64,000 nt of DNA from Alphaproteobacteria bacterium (GTDB lineage Bacteria > Pseudomonadota > Alphaproteobacteria > Rs-D84), in assembly GCA_033345195.1 (NCBI GenBank), contig JAWPOE010000001.1, positions 8,192 through 72,191 on the forward strand, written 5' to 3'. The notes below the pieces were generated by a model, which was given only the letters and a program-made list of their open reading frames with translations, was not told where the DNA came from and did not search any database. The position numbers and the translations under genes are program-made. Below are positions 3-59,722 of this stretch, piece by piece (within the stretch, counting starts at the first letter, position 1; each line of letters starts with the position of its first letter).

Positions 3-2384
3 ATCGTATTACCATCGACCCCATCAAACACATTTGGCACAGAATACAATTCATGTCGTGATGCCTATTTCACATGTATGGATCAATTTTGCGCAACTGC
101 AAATGACAGCTATCGCAGATGCATATGTTCTTCAAAACTGGCTGAAATACAATCACGGGAACGCGCACTGTCGCAAACATCTGACCAACTGCAAGACTTT
201 AAAGAACTGAACATCAGTGTTATTAATAAAACAGCCCAGGAAGTCGATGCAATGCTATCCGCGACCAACGGCGAATTGGCACAAGAAAATACCACAGACA
301 CATCTGACAGCGCAAAACATCTATCCGGGATAAGTGCCGTTTTATCCAAGGCCAAGAAAAATTCATTATCAACCCAAGGCACACTGGATATCGCGGGCGA
401 TATAAATACGATATGGTCAACAACTACGCTAACCGGTGGCAACACCATTGCCAATCTGACCGGCGAATCGCTGTATAATGCTGTACACGCCCAATGTTCT
501 GAAATGGTTTCTGAACGTTGTGGTGGTAAATCAACAGTTGATATGGTCGTATCCGCATATGGTATGTACATCGAAAATGACTGTTCTGCGATAATAAATT
601 CACTGGACAAAAAACTAATCGCCGCCAACAGTACAATTCGCGAAACAGAACGCCAAATGAATGAAGCACGCCTGGAAAACTATAACACACATAATTCGAA
701 ATCCATTAACGACTGCATCGCCCAGGTACGAATTGACATAACCAACGACAATGCATGTGGCACAAATTACGTACACTGTCTGGATGTAACTGGTCGATAT
801 TTAAACTATAATACCGGCGAACCAATCTATACGCCTGATTTTTATAAACTTTCTTCTCAGATATCTTTATCTGGGGACGTATTAACGAATGAAACCAACC
901 GTTTAATTGTCGCCAACCTAAATAATAAACGCAATTACGCAAAACGCGGTCTTGACACATGCCGCGATTTAGCAAATGAAGTATGGGACGAATTTATGCG
1001 CCAGGCAATTACAGAAATATACCAGGGACAACAAGAACGTATTAGGAAAGTTAAAAACGAGTGTTTAGAAGTTGTAAACGCATGTTACGACGAACAAAAT
1101 CAATCCTTAAAAGATTTCAGCAATGTTGATGAACAACTGTTACTGGGCACACGCTTGGAATTATCCGAACAAATGTGCAAAGAAAAATTAGACACATGCA
1201 GCAACCTATACGGCAATGGTTCGAATGGAATGCAAGAATTATTAATCGCAATGCACAATATTACAGACGCAAAAATCGCAAAACAGTGCGTTGCAACATT
1301 GCAACAGTACGCACGCGATTTATGTGCAGTACCCAGCAAAGATACTATACACGCATACCCATACGGATGCCGAACATATGCCCCCAGCGAACACCGATTT
1401 GCCGCACTTGAAATGTGTAATATAAATGCGTATTCACCCACCCCCACTGTTTCACAACAACAAACACTGACAGGAACAAACTATACAAAAACAGCCACTA
1501 ATGGTTATGATGAAGATATAGATTCTAAAACCAAACTGGATGGTGGCTGGTCAACAAACAACACATTCTATCAATGCGTAATAACATATGTCTATTGCAA
1601 GCAAGGCTATTACCTAGAGAACGGCCAATGTCTGACATGTCCAACCGGCTGTACATGCCCAGGTGGCACAGAAAAAACTTGCACAACTACGCAAGACAAA
1701 GAAGATTCTTGTGGCGATTATGAAGGCAGTTTATATCAAAAAATGGTACGCTATGCATCCCAGGCATGCGTCCGCCCCAGCGCGCCAACAAACCCACTGC
1801 CCGACACAATCTTACAAGACATCAACACAGTGATGACACAATTACACACCGACATGGCAACACAATTGGTCGCCGAATGTGAACGTTGGGACGGTGAATG
1901 GGTCAGCACAGTCTGGAAAGATGATGAGACTGACGGCAAACACGACACAACCGGCCATACACTTAATCCACGTTTCTATCGCGAAACAAACGCCAGTACC
2001 AAATGGGGATTCTGCGCAGAAAAAACAGCGTCCCAACAGACACCGTCAGACGATACAGAAGATACAGACGATACAGAAGATACAAACGATACAGAAGATA
2101 CAACAAAATATACAATAACATTCGAAAATAAAACTGACGTTTGCAAAACCCCCTTTCCAGAACGCATTACTCAAAAGGTGGCATTTGGCGCAGACATGCC
2201 AACAATAGGTCTACCACAATGTGCTGATGTAACCGCAACATACAAATTTAACGGGTATTATTATGAAGGGGAAAAATACTATGATGAAAAAGGTTCGCCA
2301 ACAAACAAGCATGCGATTTGGAACAAAGAATCAGATGCAACATTGACAGCCAATTGGACTAAAGCCACACCAGTAAACTACTAA
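3..2384 (+). CDS. Secreted Cys-rich repeat protein, 5' partial (large Cys-rich family)
   Basis: The frame is open from the window edge, with no stop upstream of the M at 78. The motif FTCMDQFC..RRCICS is shared with the 11499 and 8107 proteins. It has a CxxC-rich module (GYYLENGQCLTCPTGCTCPGG) and an acidic DTEDT repeat. The C-terminus YTITF..GYYYEG..ATLTANW resembles a Listeria-Bacteroides (Flg_new) repeat. Confidence 0.6.
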   Translation: MVLPSTPSNTFGTEYNSCRDAYFTCMDQFCATANDSYRRCICSSKLAEIQSRERALSQTSDQLQDFKELNISVINKTAQEVDAMLSATNGELAQENTTDTSDSAKHLSGISAVLSKAKKNSLSTQGTLDIAGDINTIWSTTTLTGGNTIANLTGESLYNAVHAQCSEMVSERCGGKSTVDMVVSAYGMYIENDCSAIINSLDKKLIAANSTIRETERQMNEARLENYNTHNSKSINDCIAQVRIDITNDNACGTNYVHCLDVTGRYLNYNTGEPIYTPDFYKLSSQISLSGDVLTNETNRLIVANLNNKRNYAKRGLDTCRDLANEVWDEFMRQAITEIYQGQQERIRKVKNECLEVVNACYDEQNQSLKDFSNVDEQLLLGTRLELSEQMCKEKLDTCSNLYGNGSNGMQELLIAMHNITDAKIAKQCVATLQQYARDLCAVPSKDTIHAYPYGCRTYAPSEHRFAALEMCNINAYSPTPTVSQQQTLTGTNYTKTATNGYDEDIDSKTKLDGGWSTNNTFYQCVITYVYCKQGYYLENGQCLTCPTGCTCPGGTEKTCTTTQDKEDSCGDYEGSLYQKMVRYASQACVRPSAPTNPLPDTILQDINTVMTQLHTDMATQLVAECERWDGEWVSTVWKDDETDGKHDTTGHTLNPRFYRETNASTKWGFCAEKTASQQTPSDDTEDTDDTEDTNDTEDTTKYTITFENKTDVCKTPFPERITQKVAFGADMPTIGLPQCADVTATYKFNGYYYEGEKYYDEKGSPTNKHAIWNKESDATLTANWTKATPVNY
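2049..2105 (+). repeat. In-frame tandem repeat gatacagaagatacaRac x3 (DDTEDTDDTEDTNDTEDTT)
   Basis: Read directly in the sequence; 18-nt unit inside the CDS. Confidence 0.85.
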
Positions 2385-8976: not shown

Positions 8977-10521
8977 ATGAAGACGACAAAACAAAATCTT
9001 GTTCAGAAAATATTTAATATGCGACGCGTATGCCATGTTGTATTTTGTTCCATACTGATGGCTGCCTTTATAATCGCAGACGCAAATTCTGCGGTCGTTT
9101 CACGCAACAAACGTCCAACAAATGCCGGTGTACGCATGGCAACCGCCACAGCAACCCAAAACACCGAACCAGAAATAATCGAAGAAAAGATTATTGACGA
9201 AGAAATAATCGAAGAAGAACCTGTCGAAGAAGAAGAAATTATCGAAAACAAATCATCACAGTTTGACGACATTCTGGGCGAAGCGTCCGCGTCTGGCACA
9301 GACAGTTCAAAAACCGCCCTGGCAGAAAAAATTCGCGCCCAGCGTGCCGCACTGGACGCACGTGACGCGGTCGATACTGCAAATGCAAAAATACAAAATT
9401 CAATGGCGAACGGTCAAAACGCCTGTGATTTTGGTTTGCGCGAATGCATGAAGAAAAAATGTGGCAACAATTATTCCAAATGTGCCAAAGATACAGATAC
9501 CCTGTGGGGCGACAAGATGGACGCATGTCGTCGCGACCTGCCCTGCACCGGCGAAGAATATCGTATTTTCACGACCGAAATAAAGGCCGACCGTGACATG
9601 AACACGAAAATCGGTTCGTACACATCAATCATCGACTGTGGCAACAAATACAACGATTGTGTGATTACAGAATGCGGAAAAACATTTTCAAAATGCCTGG
9701 GGAAAAGCGCCGGCGATAAAGCAATTGAAAAATGCAAAAAAATCGCAAACGAATGTAAAGAGCAAGACAGCGGTCTGCCATCCCGCATGATAGAGGTTTT
9801 TGGAACCCTGCGTCAAGATGCCGAAAAACAAATCAAAAAAGATGAAGAAAAACTATACAGCCTGCGCGATAGCATGGCAGACACCTGCAAAATGTTGGGC
9901 GCAATGTTTGACGAACGCACATTGGATTGCGTATACACTGTAAACTTTTTTGCCGGCGATAAAAACACATTATTTGCGTCGAAAAAGGCATATGCCGGCA
10001 GCACGTTTAACTGTGATCAGAATTGGTTTGGTATTGATGTGACAACGTTTAAAGAAAACGCATATCGTCTGACCCGATCTCAGACGGCGGCATCCTCTGC
10101 TATGTTGGGCAGTGGTGTTGGTACAGCGGTTGGTTCTATAACCAGTGGAGCGTTAAATCGAGCCTTAGACCGTCAGAAAGCAGAGAAAGCGTTAAAGAAA
10201 GCGAAAGAAGAAGGGAAAGAACAAAAGACAGAAGACGAAGAAAGCAACGCTTCTAAAGAAAACGAAGAAGGGAAAGAACAAAAGACAGAAGACGAAGAAA
10301 GCAATGCTTCTGAAGAAAACAACTCCCAAGAGGGGGGGGACAATAACGGTTCTGAAGACGCCACAGTTGACCAAGACGATTCTTCTAACAAACAAGAAAA
10401 TAATACCATAAAAACCGAGACAAACAGCCAAGACCATACAAATATGGATACACCAAGTACACAAATAGATACTACAACAGGTGCACCATCGACTGAACAG
10501 GTTCCCAAAATAAGAACATAA
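8977..10521 (+). CDS. Secreted Cys-rich protein with acidic low-complexity tails
   Basis: Starts 6 nt after the preceding stop, so operonic. Hydrophobic leader, ECMKKKCGNNYSKC and CGKTFSKC modules, and E/K-rich repeats. Confidence 0.6.
   Translation: MKTTKQNLVQKIFNMRRVCHVVFCSILMAAFIIADANSAVVSRNKRPTNAGVRMATATATQNTEPEIIEEKIIDEEIIEEEPVEEEEIIENKSSQFDDILGEASASGTDSSKTALAEKIRAQRAALDARDAVDTANAKIQNSMANGQNACDFGLRECMKKKCGNNYSKCAKDTDTLWGDKMDACRRDLPCTGEEYRIFTTEIKADRDMNTKIGSYTSIIDCGNKYNDCVITECGKTFSKCLGKSAGDKAIEKCKKIANECKEQDSGLPSRMIEVFGTLRQDAEKQIKKDEEKLYSLRDSMADTCKMLGAMFDERTLDCVYTVNFFAGDKNTLFASKKAYAGSTFNCDQNWFGIDVTTFKENAYRLTRSQTAASSAMLGSGVGTAVGSITSGALNRALDRQKAEKALKKAKEEGKEQKTEDEESNASKENEEGKEQKTEDEESNASEENNSQEGGDNNGSEDATVDQDDSSNKQENNTIKTETNSQDHTNMDTPSTQIDTTTGAPSTEQVPKIRT
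10207..10320 (+). repeat. 57-nt in-frame tandem duplication (EEGKEQKTEDEESNAS[K/E]EN x2)
   Basis: Two near-identical 57-nt units read directly in the sequence. Confidence 0.85.
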
Positions 10522-33651: not shown

Positions 33652-34380
33652 TCAGTCCACCGTATGATAAACCACCCCATCATAATTTACATTAATCGCA
33701 TTGGTCGCCTGCCCCGCCTCTAAATTCGCATAACAAATATTATCATTATATTTCACACACAGCGACGGCTGAGTACTTTTTTCTGCCCACAGCGGTATCG
33801 ACACCCCCGTTCCCGTCCGAAGGGTCGTTATTCCCGCCGCACACGGTGCAATCAACACACCACCAATCAAACAAAAATCACCTGATGTATCTTCATCACA
33901 ATGCGCAACATCCGCAACATCAACAAACCCCTCACCACAGTCTATTTCATACGGCACCGTATAAAACCCATCGGGACATACATCAACAGCCGCAACAGTT
34001 ACATTGGACAAAGAACGAGTAATAGCCCAAGGCAGATATCTACTACAAGCCTCATATAGATTCGATGTCGGCAGCAAGCTATATCCTGCTATAATTGTCA
34101 TCTGAAAAGGACTTGTCATATAACAATAAAGAAACTGTTCATCCCCATTAGTAATTATCTCAGCGGATGTGCCAGAATAATAATGCTTAAATTCACCATC
34201 ATAGGTCGTTTTATATATAAAACTCCACGAATCTTTGGTATAGTCACCAGGAACAGAATCAATATTGCGACCCAAAAACTCTGGCAATCGGGCGCATTTT
34301 GTAACCTGGTCTGCCGACACACATTTGGCAAAACACGAAAATGGAAACAAAACCAATAAAAATACAAAGACTCTCCGCAT
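33652..34380 (-). CDS. Small secreted Cys-rich protein, fused two-module form (242 aa)
   Basis: Has a signal peptide. The N-terminal module (YCYMTSPFQM) resembles the 58588 protein (TCFMLHPFVM). The C-terminal module CPDGF..CAAGITTLRTGTGVSIPLW..NVNYDGVVYHTVD resembles the 58197 protein. Confidence 0.7.
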   Translation of the reverse strand: MRRVFVFLLVLFPFSCFAKCVSADQVTKCARLPEFLGRNIDSVPGDYTKDSWSFIYKTTYDGEFKHYYSGTSAEIITNGDEQFLYCYMTSPFQMTIIAGYSLLPTSNLYEACSRYLPWAITRSLSNVTVAAVDVCPDGFYTVPYEIDCGEGFVDVADVAHCDEDTSGDFCLIGGVLIAPCAAGITTLRTGTGVSIPLWAEKSTQPSLCVKYNDNICYANLEAGQATNAINVNYDGVVYHTVD

Positions 34381-34604
34381 TTCCCGAATTCCAAAACAAA
34401 AACCATCATTGGGAAATGATGGTCGGGGGTTCGAAAAGTCAAGTGTTTAAGACCCCGTTGCCTTCAATATATAACAACGGCACCCCGACACAATGTGGGG
34501 TAAAAATAACGGCGCAAAAGACACCGAATTTATCGGATTACGATGCAATTGCACCGAAACACATGGGCTTTTCGAAGGCCCGAACTCATATCCCTATGAA
34601 TTCA
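34381..34604 (-). promoter_or_regulatory. Candidate cis-regulatory structured 5' leader RNA, copy A
   Basis: 34421-34615 is about 85% identical by eye to 59035-59232. It runs from the predicted TSS to the RBS and contains conserved helices plus a terminal attenuator hairpin. Confidence 0.6.
34391..34422 (-). terminator. Leader (attenuator) intrinsic terminator, copy A
   Basis: On the minus strand, CCAUCAUU-UCCC-AAUGAUGG followed by UUUUUGUUUUGG, ending 10 nt before the ATG. Confidence 0.6.
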
Positions 34605-34610
34605 AAATGA

Positions 34611-34639
34611 ACTATACACCACCACACAAATAAATTCAA
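34611..34639 (-). promoter_or_regulatory. Candidate sigma70 promoter of leader A
   Basis: On the minus strand, TTGAAT-17 nt-TATAGT. Conservation with copy B begins just downstream. Confidence 0.5.
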
Positions 34640-58173: not shown

Positions 58174-58198
58174 AAATCCCCCGATTGGGGGATTTTTT
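58172..58198. terminator. Bidirectional intrinsic terminator
   Basis: aaaaa-tccccc-gatt-ggggga-tttttt lies between convergent genes. Confidence 0.65.
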
Positions 58199-58595
58199 AT
58201 TGCACAGCATGATATACGACACCATTATATTTGACATTGATTGCGCCAGTGGCACTGCCAGATTCTAAATCCACGTAACATACCATATTATTATATTTAA
58301 TATGAATTGATGGACTGGTAGATTTATCAGAATACAGCGGGAACGACAATCCACCAGATGTGTTTAATTTTGTAATACCTGCACCACACAACGCGCGAAC
58401 CAACCAACATGCACCAGTCGCGCCCACCGAACACACTTCTGATACATCATGCGCAACATAACCCGACGAACACGCACCACCCACCGCAGGCACAAATGTA
58501 TCATATTCAACCGCAACAAAACCAGCCGGACATGATTGCGCAAATGCACAAAACGGGTACAACAAAAATAAAATTAATCTATTTCTACTACGCAT
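58197..58595 (-). CDS. Small secreted Cys-rich protein, C-module form
   Basis: The ATG at 58595 overlaps the upstream TAG by 8 nt (ATGCGTAG). Has a signal peptide. CPAGF..CGAGITKLNTSGGLSFPLY..NVKYNGVVYHAVQ is homologous to the C-terminal half of 33652..34380. Confidence 0.7.
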   Translation of the reverse strand: MRSRNRLILFLLYPFCAFAQSCPAGFVAVEYDTFVPAVGGACSSGYVAHDVSEVCSVGATGACWLVRALCGAGITKLNTSGGLSFPLYSDKSTSPSIHIKYNNMVCYVDLESGSATGAINVKYNGVVYHAVQ

Positions 58596-58998
58596 AAGGA
58601 TTATCACAAACTACTTTTTCGGGACACTTTTCAACCATACACTTTGGAACGATTGCGCCACAAAGGCTAGCATCCGTATACAATCCTGAATCACACCCAA
58701 CCACATATCCATACGGCATAACAAACGGATGTAACATAAAACAAGTATGACGATAACTATAATAACCATACGGATTTGGCAAACTCACTTCATTAAACGC
58801 AATAGAAACACTATTAGACTCAATATCATCCAATGCAATCCCTGACACATCAACCCCACAACAATTTGCACTCCACGCCATTCCCGAATAGCTAAAATTT
58901 GTACATGATGTACATGTACTTAAATCCGGCACACACATTGTGGCGGCATTTGCGCCCCCACACATCAATAGAAATAACAAACAAATACTTCGTCTCAT
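58588..58998 (-). CDS. Small secreted Cys-rich protein, N-module form
   Basis: Strong RBS AAGGGGG and a signal peptide ending GANA. TCFMLHPFVMPYGY is homologous to the N-terminal half of 33652..34380. Confidence 0.7.
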   Translation of the reverse strand: MRRSICLLFLLMCGGANAATMCVPDLSTCTSCTNFSYSGMAWSANCCGVDVSGIALDDIESNSVSIAFNEVSLPNPYGYYSYRHTCFMLHPFVMPYGYVVGCDSGLYTDASLCGAIVPKCMVEKCPEKVVCDNPYA

Positions 58999-59219
58999 TT
59001 TTCCCCCTTACAAAAAAACCGCCACAAGGATTGACGGTCGGGGTGTTAGAAAAGTCAACTATTTAAGACCCCGTTGCTTTCAACATATAACAACGGCACC
59101 CCGACATGATGTGGGGCAAAAATAACGGCGCAAAAACACCGAATTTATCGGATTACGATGCGTTTGCACCGAAATAGTTAGGCTTTTCTAAGGCCCGAAC
59201 CCAAATCCCTCTGGATTCA
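58999..59219 (-). promoter_or_regulatory. Candidate cis-regulatory structured 5' leader RNA, copy B
   Basis: 59035-59232 aligns with 34421-34615. It has the same architecture: promoter, conserved core, terminator, RBS. Confidence 0.6.
59011..59038 (-). terminator. Leader (attenuator) intrinsic terminator, copy B
   Basis: On the minus strand, ACCGUCA-AUCCUUG-UGGCGGU followed by UUUUUUUG, then AAGGGGG and the ATG. The stem sequence is unrelated to copy A but forms the same structure. Confidence 0.6.
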
Positions 59220-59225
59220 GAACGT

Positions 59226-59254
59226 ATTATACATCAAAACAACAAAAAAGACAA
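59226..59254 (-). promoter_or_regulatory. Candidate sigma70 promoter of leader B
   Basis: On the minus strand, TTGTCT-17 nt-TATAAT. Confidence 0.5.
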
Positions 59255-59281: not shown

Positions 59282-59692
59282 CTATTTACACCACGACTTT
59301 CTTTTTCCACCACTGTACCGTCGTGCCAATTTTTCACGAACCAACACATCACCAACATCACGTCCATCTGGCAAAATAACATTGGCATCAATGCGCCCCA
59401 AATACTTATCATCTTTGATATTCTGTAAATCGACAATCGTTTCAATTGGCAATAAATCCTCTAAGCGTTCTTTGGCACGATGCGCGGCGGCAATTTCCGC
59501 ATCACAATCACCATTTAATTCGGGCGTATCAACATTAATCAAACGAACACGCACAGTGATTTTTGTATCATCGGCCAACGCCACACGCGCCGCAAATGTA
59601 TCACCGTCTAAAACATAGTCCACAATTGCCGGCACCGCATGGGCCGATCCAGATACAAATATACACACAATAAAAAACAATAAGTTTTTCAT
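59282..59692 (-). CDS. Secreted thermonuclease (SNase-like)
   Basis: Starts at MKNLLFFIVCIFVSGSAHA. Contains the motifs DGDTF..VRLINVDTPE and ..DKYLGRIDANV. Confidence 0.8.
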   Translation of the reverse strand: MKNLLFFIVCIFVSGSAHAVPAIVDYVLDGDTFAARVALADDTKITVRVRLINVDTPELNGDCDAEIAAAHRAKERLEDLLPIETIVDLQNIKDDKYLGRIDANVILPDGRDVGDVLVREKLARRYSGGKRKSWCK

Positions 59693-59722
59693 GTTTTTTA
59701 TCCCACGTCTCATATTCCACCA

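Follow-up and report, generated by a model that had tools for sequence, protein, structure and literature searches.

The stretch of DNA analysed here (hereafter the window) covers 64,000 nucleotides (nt) of a genome from the alphaproteobacterial order Rs-D84 (contig JAWPOE010000001.1) and carries rpsL, rpsG, tolB and ftsEX, which makes it chromosomal. Two copies of a leader, A and B, stand before genes for secreted proteins on its minus strand. Copy B occupies 59012–59254 and combines a promoter, a structured RNA of ~205 nt and an intrinsic terminator; the two genes behind it, cargo genes 1 and 2, overlap by 8 nt (ATGCGTAG). A preliminary description of the stretch had assigned to copy B a promoter, a hairpin followed by a U-run, and a ribosome-binding site (RBS) leading into a two-gene operon. 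All of these parts are indeed present, and a further terminator lies behind the operon (Table 1). We find that copies A and B belong to a new and much larger family of leader RNAs, and we propose that they attenuate transcription through a terminator/antiterminator switch built from three short segments.

The copy B promoter is sigma-70-like, with 10/12 matches (TTGTCT-17-TATAAT, 59254..59226). On its own this match is not significant, as the region contains 3 promoter-like sites and 5.0 are expected. The significance comes from the conserved position, not from the match score itself. Copy A has TTGAAT-17-TATAGT (34639..34611), which aligns box for box with the copy B promoter, as the preliminary description had noted for placement and spacing. 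Moreover, TTGnnn-(16–18)-TATAAT is found in 52 of 53 family members, in most of which the −10 box ends 25–27 nt before the start of the family model, just upstream of the first helix. The terminator of the preceding gene often lies just upstream of the leader promoter.

The two copies share 86% identity over 219 nt (59032–59249 versus 34417–34633) in the same orientation, and the proteins encoded downstream have only a C-terminal domain of ~110 amino acids in common, at 45% identity. The leader is therefore far better conserved than its cargo. The terminator hairpins of both copies are stable (−9.1 kcal/mol for copy B and −10.5 kcal/mol for copy A, each hairpin alone), and the whole leaders fold at −78.7 and −79.0 kcal/mol (z = −4.6 and −5.8 against dinucleotide shuffles). 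The preliminary description had named unstable hairpins as grounds for its refutation, and these energies do not refute it. The earlier view that the two terminator stems share no sequence does not hold. In nine leaders of the sequence class to which the window copies belong (the window class), the 5' arm is always GACC-N-UCA and the 3' arm UG-NN-GGUU. The only differences in the stem are compensatory (pair 209:225, AU5/GC2/GU2; pair 210:224, UA4/UG3/CG2). The terminators of copies A and B are homologous and co-varying, and not independent inventions.

The wider family came to light through the cargo. Homologues of the copy A cargo form 48 clusters, all unnamed, which we traced to contigs and representative genomes, examining the regions upstream. 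By their titles, these genomes belong to Candidatus Enterousia and related gut Alphaproteobacteria. Close relatives have near-identical leaders, and nhmmer and blastn searches with the window copies gave no leader matches past ~50% cargo identity. The upstream regions of the distant loci nevertheless have one common architecture in different sequence, and only in this way was the wider family recognized. A pattern made of the conserved hairpin loop and the pre-terminator segment retrieved 52 metagenome loci, of which ~44 are genuine; the remaining 8 are obvious chance matches in coding sequence or simple repeats.

We then relied on a covariance model (R1) built from a 41-sequence seed that contained no window-class sequence. 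In the 64-kb window R1 gives exactly two full-length matches, both spanning model positions 1–189: copy A at 33.7 bits (E 2e-9) and copy B at 26.5 bits (E 5e-7). The third-ranked match, at 9.4 bits, is a plain terminator. Over all loci, comprising the protein homologues, the genome scan and the metagenome scan, R1 finds 64 matches, 55 of them distinct and full-length, and there are several copies of the RNA per genome. The feature is real, well beyond chance and more than a two-copy repeat, and copies A and B are divergent members of a larger leader RNA family. TolB on a human-gut contig with the mainstream sequence class is 79% identical to the window TolB, which places the mainstream and window classes in one broad lineage.

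The family lies outside Rfam 15 and the searchable literature. At the gathering threshold, Rfam 15 matches nothing in the window and none of the leaders at 8 loci. Scans by E-value with three representative copies also stayed below threshold, the mainstream member giving noise only. The best sub-threshold scores (sRNA-Xcc1, 26 against a gathering score of 53; PyrR, 23.8 against 54; Trp_leader, 17.9 against 41) reflect only a generic attenuator shape. We found no prior description in the literature on Enterousia or Rs-D84, nor among riboswitch candidates, and no match in the text and 200 of the 408 supplementary files of the Fremin and Bhatt survey of structured RNAs in the gut. A phage or mobile origin was considered and rejected, since blastn found no match among 50,697 phage records. 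We conclude that the RNA family is new and that the kind of mechanism is known.

From 5' to 3', the RNA consists of P1 at the transcription start, a G-rich element, the 5' strand of P2, a C-rich element, the 5' strand of P3, a variable P4, segment 1 (seg1)-loop-segment 2 (seg2), which together form P5, then P6, the 3' strands of P3 and P2, AAC, segment 3 (seg3) and the terminator. The G-rich element is GGGGUGU in the family and GGG in the window class; the conserved P6 loop is GAAUAUAUUGAAUAAG in the family and UUAUAUGUUGAAAG in the window. Between copies A and B, P1 differs by compensatory changes at pairs 10:23 and 13:20 of the window-class alignment, and P2 by the change from UUAGAAAAG/CUUUUCUAA in copy B to UUCGAAAAG/CUUUUCGAA in copy A.

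Table 1. Features of copies A and B and of the genes behind them (window coordinates; MFE, minimum free energy).
Feature	Position	Strand	Remarks
Copy B, −35 box TTGTCT	59249..59254	−	position kept in 52/53 family members
Copy B, −10 box TATAAT	59226..59231	−	17-nt spacer; position kept in 52/53 family members
P1, 5'-terminal hairpin GAAUCCAGA-GGGA-UUUGGGUUC	59197..59218	−	MFE fold; 2 compensatory changes versus copy A
GGG	59194..59196	−	predicted partner either the CC(U) that follows the 5' strand of P2 (hairpin Sa) or CCC of seg3
P2, 5' strand UUAGAAAAG	59183..59191	−	partner 59046–59054
P3, 5' strand UAACUAUUU	59172..59180	−	partner 59056–59064 (MFE fold)
P4, variable domain	59126..59171	−	internal terminator-like hairpin (59141–59126), then UUAUUUUU
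seg1 GCCCCACA	59110..59117	−	5' arm of hairpin P5; proposed anti-antiterminator
seg2 GUCGGGGUG	59097..59105	−	shared switching strand; partner seg1 or seg3
P6 hairpin	59071..59096	−	conserved loop UUAUAUGUUGAAAG at 59077–59090, homologous to family GAAUAUAUUGAAUAAG
P3, 3' strand AAAUAGUUG	59056..59064	−	inside alternative hairpin Sb (GUC..GAC, 59067–59054)
P2, 3' strand CUUUUCUAA	59046..59054	−	MFE fold and family alignment
seg3 CACCCCGAC	59037..59045	−	complementary to seg2; last 3 nt are the base of the terminator stem
Intrinsic terminator GACCGUCA-AUCCUUG-UGGCGGUU + U7	59012..59039	−	hairpin 59039..59017; −9.1 kcal/mol
RBS AAGGGGG and ATG of cargo gene 1	58996..59009	−	RBS 59009–59003; ATG 58998
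Cargo gene 1	58588..58998	−	136 amino acids; signal peptide; Cys-rich; no family match
Cargo gene 2	58197..58595	−	132 amino acids; signal peptide; C-terminal domain in common with the copy A cargo (45%)
Operon-end terminator	58178..58192	−	
Copy A	34397..34639	−	promoter 34639–34611; RNA ~34606–34397; terminator 34424–34401
Copy A, switch segments		−	seg1 34500–34494; seg2 34489–34482; seg3 34430–34422
Copy A cargo	33652..34380	−	242-amino-acid secreted Cys-rich protein

The fold is supported by covariation in three alignments. In a plain MAFFT alignment, which is not fitted to any structure, 91.8% of cells pair (37–52% when slid) and 29 of 45 pairs show two-sided changes; the covariation score is 0.361, against 0.157 for shuffled alignments, and the observed values were reached in 0 of 500 shuffles. 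In a model-based alignment of 59 distinct rows, window class included, 93.0% of cells pair (34–48% when slid) and two-sided changes occur at 40 of the 45 pairs. Helix by helix, pairing in this alignment is 97.5% for P2, 90–98% for P3, 99.5% for the basal stem of P4, 96.7% for P5 and 93.5% for the terminator. All five P2 pairs co-vary, and up to six pair types occur per position in P3. G–U pairs are frequent (for example GU16 at 39:136 and UG12 at 313:331), which fixes the transcribed strand. Finally, RNAalifold run on the nine window-class leaders returns the same P1–P6 and terminator, with two-sided changes at 15 of 60 pairs. As the preliminary description had supposed, comparison of the sequences indicates that selection acts on the RNA structure.

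This covariation also speaks to the least eventful explanation, that the leader is a conserved 5' region without regulatory function: a product of duplication or gene conversion, a recombination site for cargo swapping, an insulator terminator or a constitutive element that stabilizes the mRNA. Such an origin would suit the exchange of cargo behind a conserved leader that we describe below, and the partly paralogous cargo of copies A and B. However, sequence diverges freely while pairing is kept, with up to 4–6 pair types per position, so that the constraint is on RNA structure and not on DNA identity. The G–U pairs are strand-specific, a terminator placed between a promoter and its sole gene is no insulator, and three segments that co-vary with one another would be left without a role. 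We consider this explanation very improbable.

The core had been described as nearly invariant. This is true between close copies such as A and B and fails across the family, where the core drifts strongly in sequence and is held by covariation. The unpaired 'core' sequences likewise differ markedly between sister classes. Co-evolution with a protein or RNA partner would explain such drift no less well than a conserved metabolite pocket would.

The RNA has a fixed place before genes. A co-oriented open reading frame (ORF) follows in 56 of 59 distinct contexts, at a median of 24 nt (range 0–90) past the RNA; at three loci (L004, L006 and L010) the ATG directly follows the U-run. Signal-peptide-like N termini are found in 48 of these 56 ORFs, and the cargo is mostly Cys-rich. 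The last terminator U is separated from the start codon by 13 nt in copy B and 16 nt in copy A. This gap leaves no room for a second promoter, so the cargo must be transcribed through the terminator. That the RNA is a structured cis-regulatory leader we regard as highly probable.

What the preliminary description missed is the key element of the leader: seg2 is complementary to both seg1 and seg3. Among upstream sequences, seg2 is the best partner of the pre-terminator segment in 53 of 55 members, and its position is constant. The median seg2:seg3 duplex is −17.4 kcal/mol (z −3.2 against shuffles) versus −13.6 kcal/mol for seg1:seg2; the corresponding values are −18.2 versus −10.7 kcal/mol in copy B and −13.8 versus −9.8 kcal/mol in copy A. 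Pairing of seg2 with seg3 reaches 95.6% in the seed and 100% in the window class, where two compensatory pairs occur (GC7/AU2 and UA2/AU2). Moreover, the segments change together from class to class, as in the triplets CUCCUGA/GGUCAGGAGG/CCUCCUGACC, CCUCCAAC/GUUGGAGG/CCUCCAAC, CCCCAC/GUCGGGG/CCCCGAC and UCCCGA/GUCGGGAAG/CUUCCCGAC.

Because seg2:seg3 cannot nest with P2 and P3, two global conformers are predicted. Fold I contains P2, P3, P5 and the terminator; in Fold II, seg2:seg3 is joined by Sa and Sb, two small stems. The ground state is predicted to be Fold I, above which Fold II lies by 4.7 kcal/mol in copy B, 11.5 kcal/mol in copy A and 8.4 kcal/mol in the leader of locus L034, where the difference falls to ~3 kcal/mol in the nascent transcript. 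Sa encloses the 5' strand of P2 (GGGG/CCCN, GAGG/CCUC or GUGG/CCAC) and Sb the 3' strand of P3 (CAAU/AUUG, CUAU/AUAG, and GUC/GAC in the window). Both show some covariation, and both arise spontaneously once the alternative fold is enforced. In these models they would be either H-type pseudoknot partners of P2 and P3 or, more simply, elements of the second conformer.

We propose the following mechanism. Transcription would start ~7 nt past the TATAAT box, at the base of P1, and the next ~180 nt would fold into a multi-helix domain in which the long-range helices P2 and P3 enclose P4, P5 (seg1:seg2) and P6. While seg1 and seg2 are paired, seg3 would be free or held by the 5' GGG, and the terminator would form. 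Its U-run would end just before the RBS, and read-through would be the sole route to expression of the cargo genes, which lack their own promoter. Base pairs adjoining the U-tract are needed for intrinsic termination. The longer and stronger seg2:seg3 pairing would remove the bottom 2–3 base pairs of the terminator stem beside the U-tract, and from general knowledge of termination we infer that their loss to seg2 would abolish termination. Being topologically incompatible with P2 and P3, the pairing would free the strands of these helices, which in the second conformer would be held in Sa and Sb. Thermodynamics favours the terminator state by default, so that we expect a signal that activates. 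A small molecule, an RNA-binding protein specific to the lineage or a second RNA might each play this part.

We put the probability that copies A and B are cis-acting transcription attenuators working by this three-segment switch at roughly 60%. Computation shows the family, its structure, the promoter, the terminator, the alternative complementarities, which co-vary, and the constant location ahead of genes in the same orientation; the operation of the switch, its direction and its trigger are our proposals. Several points weigh against the attenuator. All folds are predicted, and the overlap of seg3 with the terminator is just 2–3 nt, so that the case for disrupted termination draws on general knowledge that the stem base beside the U-tract is critical. 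At two loci (L016 and L050) a change in seg2 is compensated in seg1 and not in seg3, which places the antiterminator under weaker constraint than P5. Sa and Sb could be pseudoknot partners that coexist with P2 and P3. The cargo points to no ligand or binding protein, with no Pfam match and no neighbour in the PDB. Finally, a purely cis-acting model fails to explain an array at locus L021 (8460–9400), where five tandem promoter-RNA-terminator units follow one another with no ORFs between them. One of these units is truncated at its 5' end and one lacks the conserved P6 loop. Small helix-turn-helix (HTH)-like ORFs occur only after the last unit, at ~9460–9590 and 9608–9850. The array suggests that the terminated RNA may be functional itself, as a decoy or a trans-acting small RNA (sRNA).

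A strict metabolite-binding riboswitch is a special case of the attenuator, in which P2, P3 and P6 would form an aptamer for a small molecule or ion that shifts the equilibrium among the three segments. We regard it as possible, on the unlikely side. Its attractions are a complex multi-helix, possibly double-pseudoknotted domain that lies in the 5' untranslated region (UTR), is supported by covariation and retains conserved unpaired elements (GGGGUGU, GCGUC, the P6 loop GAAUAUAUUGAAUAAG and AAC), together with a platform on which terminator and antiterminator are mutually exclusive. Transcriptional riboswitches with intrinsic terminators have the same 5' UTR position, covarying domain and mutually exclusive pairings, and often occur in several copies per genome. 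Second-messenger riboswitches such as c-di-GMP-I/GEMM-I often precede genes for secreted or surface proteins. However, the leader matches none of the known Rfam aptamers, and its unpaired sequences drift within a single order (UGU versus CC, ACAAUUC versus GGUCUU, the P6 loop rewritten or interrupted by a hairpin), whereas pockets for universal metabolites are normally invariant. Nor does the cargo follow any metabolic logic, and the ORF-less, promoter-bearing tandem copies of L021 are foreign to such riboswitches. The preliminary description had read the leader as an aptamer joined to an expression platform. We retain the structured leader with its own promoter and its terminator platform; nothing indicates a small-molecule ligand. 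Loop drift between sister lineages and the ORF-less tandem copies leave a protein or RNA trigger, or a function in trans, equally open.

We find it unlikely that the element is primarily a trans-acting sRNA of ~200 nt, alone or with a dual cis and trans role, whose C-rich pre-terminator segment (CCUCC.. or CCCC..) would be an anti-Shine–Dalgarno seed and whose downstream genes would be expressed by leaky read-through. Each unit does have its own promoter and terminator, often with the terminator of the preceding gene just upstream, the RNA is multicopy, the L021 array consists of such units without ORFs, and seg3 resembles an anti-Shine–Dalgarno sequence that could pair with downstream Shine–Dalgarno sequences. 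There is also a precedent in the Brt RNAs of Bartonella (PMC5387305). Against this, the best partner of seg3 is intramolecular, and seg3 co-varies with seg2 even where it no longer resembles an anti-Shine–Dalgarno sequence (CCCCGAC, UUCCCGAC). Of the 59 copies, 56 immediately precede a gene in the same orientation, too closely for a promoter to fit in between. The conserved P6 loop has no complementary target in the window, where its matches are at chance level except for the two copies themselves, and a simple seed and terminator would not need most of the 5' domain that covariation supports. Attenuation by ribosomes translating a leader peptide within the RNA, which an SD-like seg2 (Shine–Dalgarno-like AGGAGG) in most members and an AUG within AUGGGGUGU in many might suggest, is ruled out by the lack of any conserved start codon or frame within the leader: the AUG is replaced by ACG, GCG, CUG or UUC in other members and has no counterpart in the window class, the ORFs range from 11 to 43 codons with no common frame, and the lengths of indels in P4 and P6 are not divisible by three.

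By published description, the closest analogue of the leader would be the Brt RNAs. Brt1–9 of Bartonella henselae are nine copies of 194–203 nt located upstream of trp genes, which encode Xre-type HTH proteins; each is transcribed from its own promoter, is predicted to be extensively structured and ends in a terminator immediately before a gene with little transcription (PMC5387305). They are not known to bind a ligand. Their authors hypothesize a riboswitch-like attenuator in cis that also acts in trans, a proposal that is not proven, and report the RNAs as Bartonella-specific, with nothing similar elsewhere; the system controls BadA, a trimeric autotransporter adhesin (PMC5387305). The leader described here is likewise alphaproteobacterial, multicopy and ~200 nt long, with a promoter and a terminator directly 5' of a gene. 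Small HTH genes follow the last L021 unit and, as cargo, the leader of L024. At L029, the cargo starts ~25 nt past the leader (1835–2027, minus strand) and carries a YadA-like membrane anchor (PF03895, E 9e-9); by this match it would be an adhesin of the trimeric autotransporter type, parallel to the Brt/BadA pair. By contrast, Brt cargo is always an HTH regulator and the cargo here is almost always secreted and Cys-rich, and the covariation-based structure and antiterminator described here have no described equivalent for Brt.

Mechanistically, the leader most resembles, by analogy, a terminator/antiterminator riboswitch or a protein-dependent attenuator. The PyrR binding site (RF00515) and the trp leader (RF00513) have the same anti-antiterminator/antiterminator/terminator logic, and the 3' half of one family member can be aligned to both by cmscan. 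The resemblance is in shape only: the scores are low, and the leader contains neither a PyrR box nor Trp codons nor a leader peptide. Similarly, cmscan aligns copy B 59029–59105 to the full sRNA-Xcc1 model (RF02221), pairing GUCGGGGUG with CACCCCGAC and closing two hairpins, so that an unrelated model picks out the antiterminator conformer. Xcc1 is however a free-standing sRNA of 87 nt, the match is confined to the window class and reaches half the gathering score, and we treat it as a chance structural resemblance. LhrC1–5 of Listeria and the alpha-r14 'cuckoo' RNAs of Rhizobiales are short sRNAs whose hairpin loops carry a C-rich motif. They too are multicopy and sometimes tandem, have C-rich motifs complementary to Shine–Dalgarno sequences and are linked to the regulation of surface proteins. 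In the leader, by contrast, the C-rich segments take part in intramolecular alternative pairing and the RNA is fixed before a gene; no Rfam match links it to them.

The cargo evolves faster than the leader and has been exchanged behind it. Locus L002 (3749–4765) is syntenic with window 58197–59254 (amino-acid identities: TolB 88%, PlsC 88%, FtsE 83%, FtsX 76%, staphylococcal nuclease-like protein 66%). Its leader is 93% identical to copy B, and its cargo is a single gene for 254 amino acids, 80% identical to the copy A cargo. Elsewhere, 89% nucleotide identity of the leader goes with 53% amino-acid identity of the cargo. Cargo gene 1 has no homologue in any other locus compared. Pfam finds no match in the window cargo and, in 10 other cargos, only the YadA anchor and a weak Ephrin_rec_like match. 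The AlphaFold2 model of the copy A cargo, of moderate confidence (predicted local distance difference test 77.8, predicted template-modelling score 0.62), is mostly β-strand, and nothing in the PDB resembles it in structure (best E 0.31).

If the switch works as we infer, the family is a new class of cis-regulatory RNA of ~200 nt with unusually clean comparative support. It would also be a second, independent example of the Brt-type arrangement of multicopy, terminated leader RNAs in Alphaproteobacteria, one that supplies a structural model; the idea of a dual riboswitch and sRNA becomes directly testable through the three short segments. The RNA marks, and probably co-regulates, a repertoire of secreted Cys-rich proteins without known fold. 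Such proteins most likely mediate contact with the host or other microbes, and the RNA defines the gene set and offers a route to the signal that controls it. The lineage itself, order Rs-D84 with Candidatus Enterousia, comprises reduced-genome gut bacteria and is understudied. The order is uncultured and known only from metagenome-assembled genomes; those of Enterousia measure 0.75–1.0 Mb and lack the tricarboxylic acid cycle, the respiratory chain and most transporters (PMC12306168).

A broader idea, which we offer as speculative and somewhat doubtful, is a regulon-wide RNA switch. In a genome of ~0.9 Mb with few regulators, one leader placed before perhaps dozens of fast-evolving secreted or surface genes would put the whole secretome under a single signal, either a small molecule from the host or a partner, or a co-evolving lineage-specific RNA-binding factor. 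The ORF-less copies would then be trans decoys or sRNAs for the same factor. Were this true, both the RNA fold and its effector would be new.

Some minor features accompany the leaders. Inside P4 lies a second terminator-like element (window 59118–59141 and 34502–34526), in which UUAUUUUU comes after a GC-rich hairpin, CGGUGUUUUUGCGCCG. An equivalent (GGCGC..GCGCC and U5–7) is present in most mainstream members, and members of the L004 type are without it; the element may be a programmed pause site. Between tolB and copy B, window 59282–59713 holds a gene for a signal-peptide protein resembling staphylococcal nuclease (PF00565, 27.4 bits), and the same gene order is kept in L002. In two genomes (L006:1–315 and L011:15–129) the unit of leader and cargo lies shortly downstream of the end of a 23S–5S ribosomal RNA operon.

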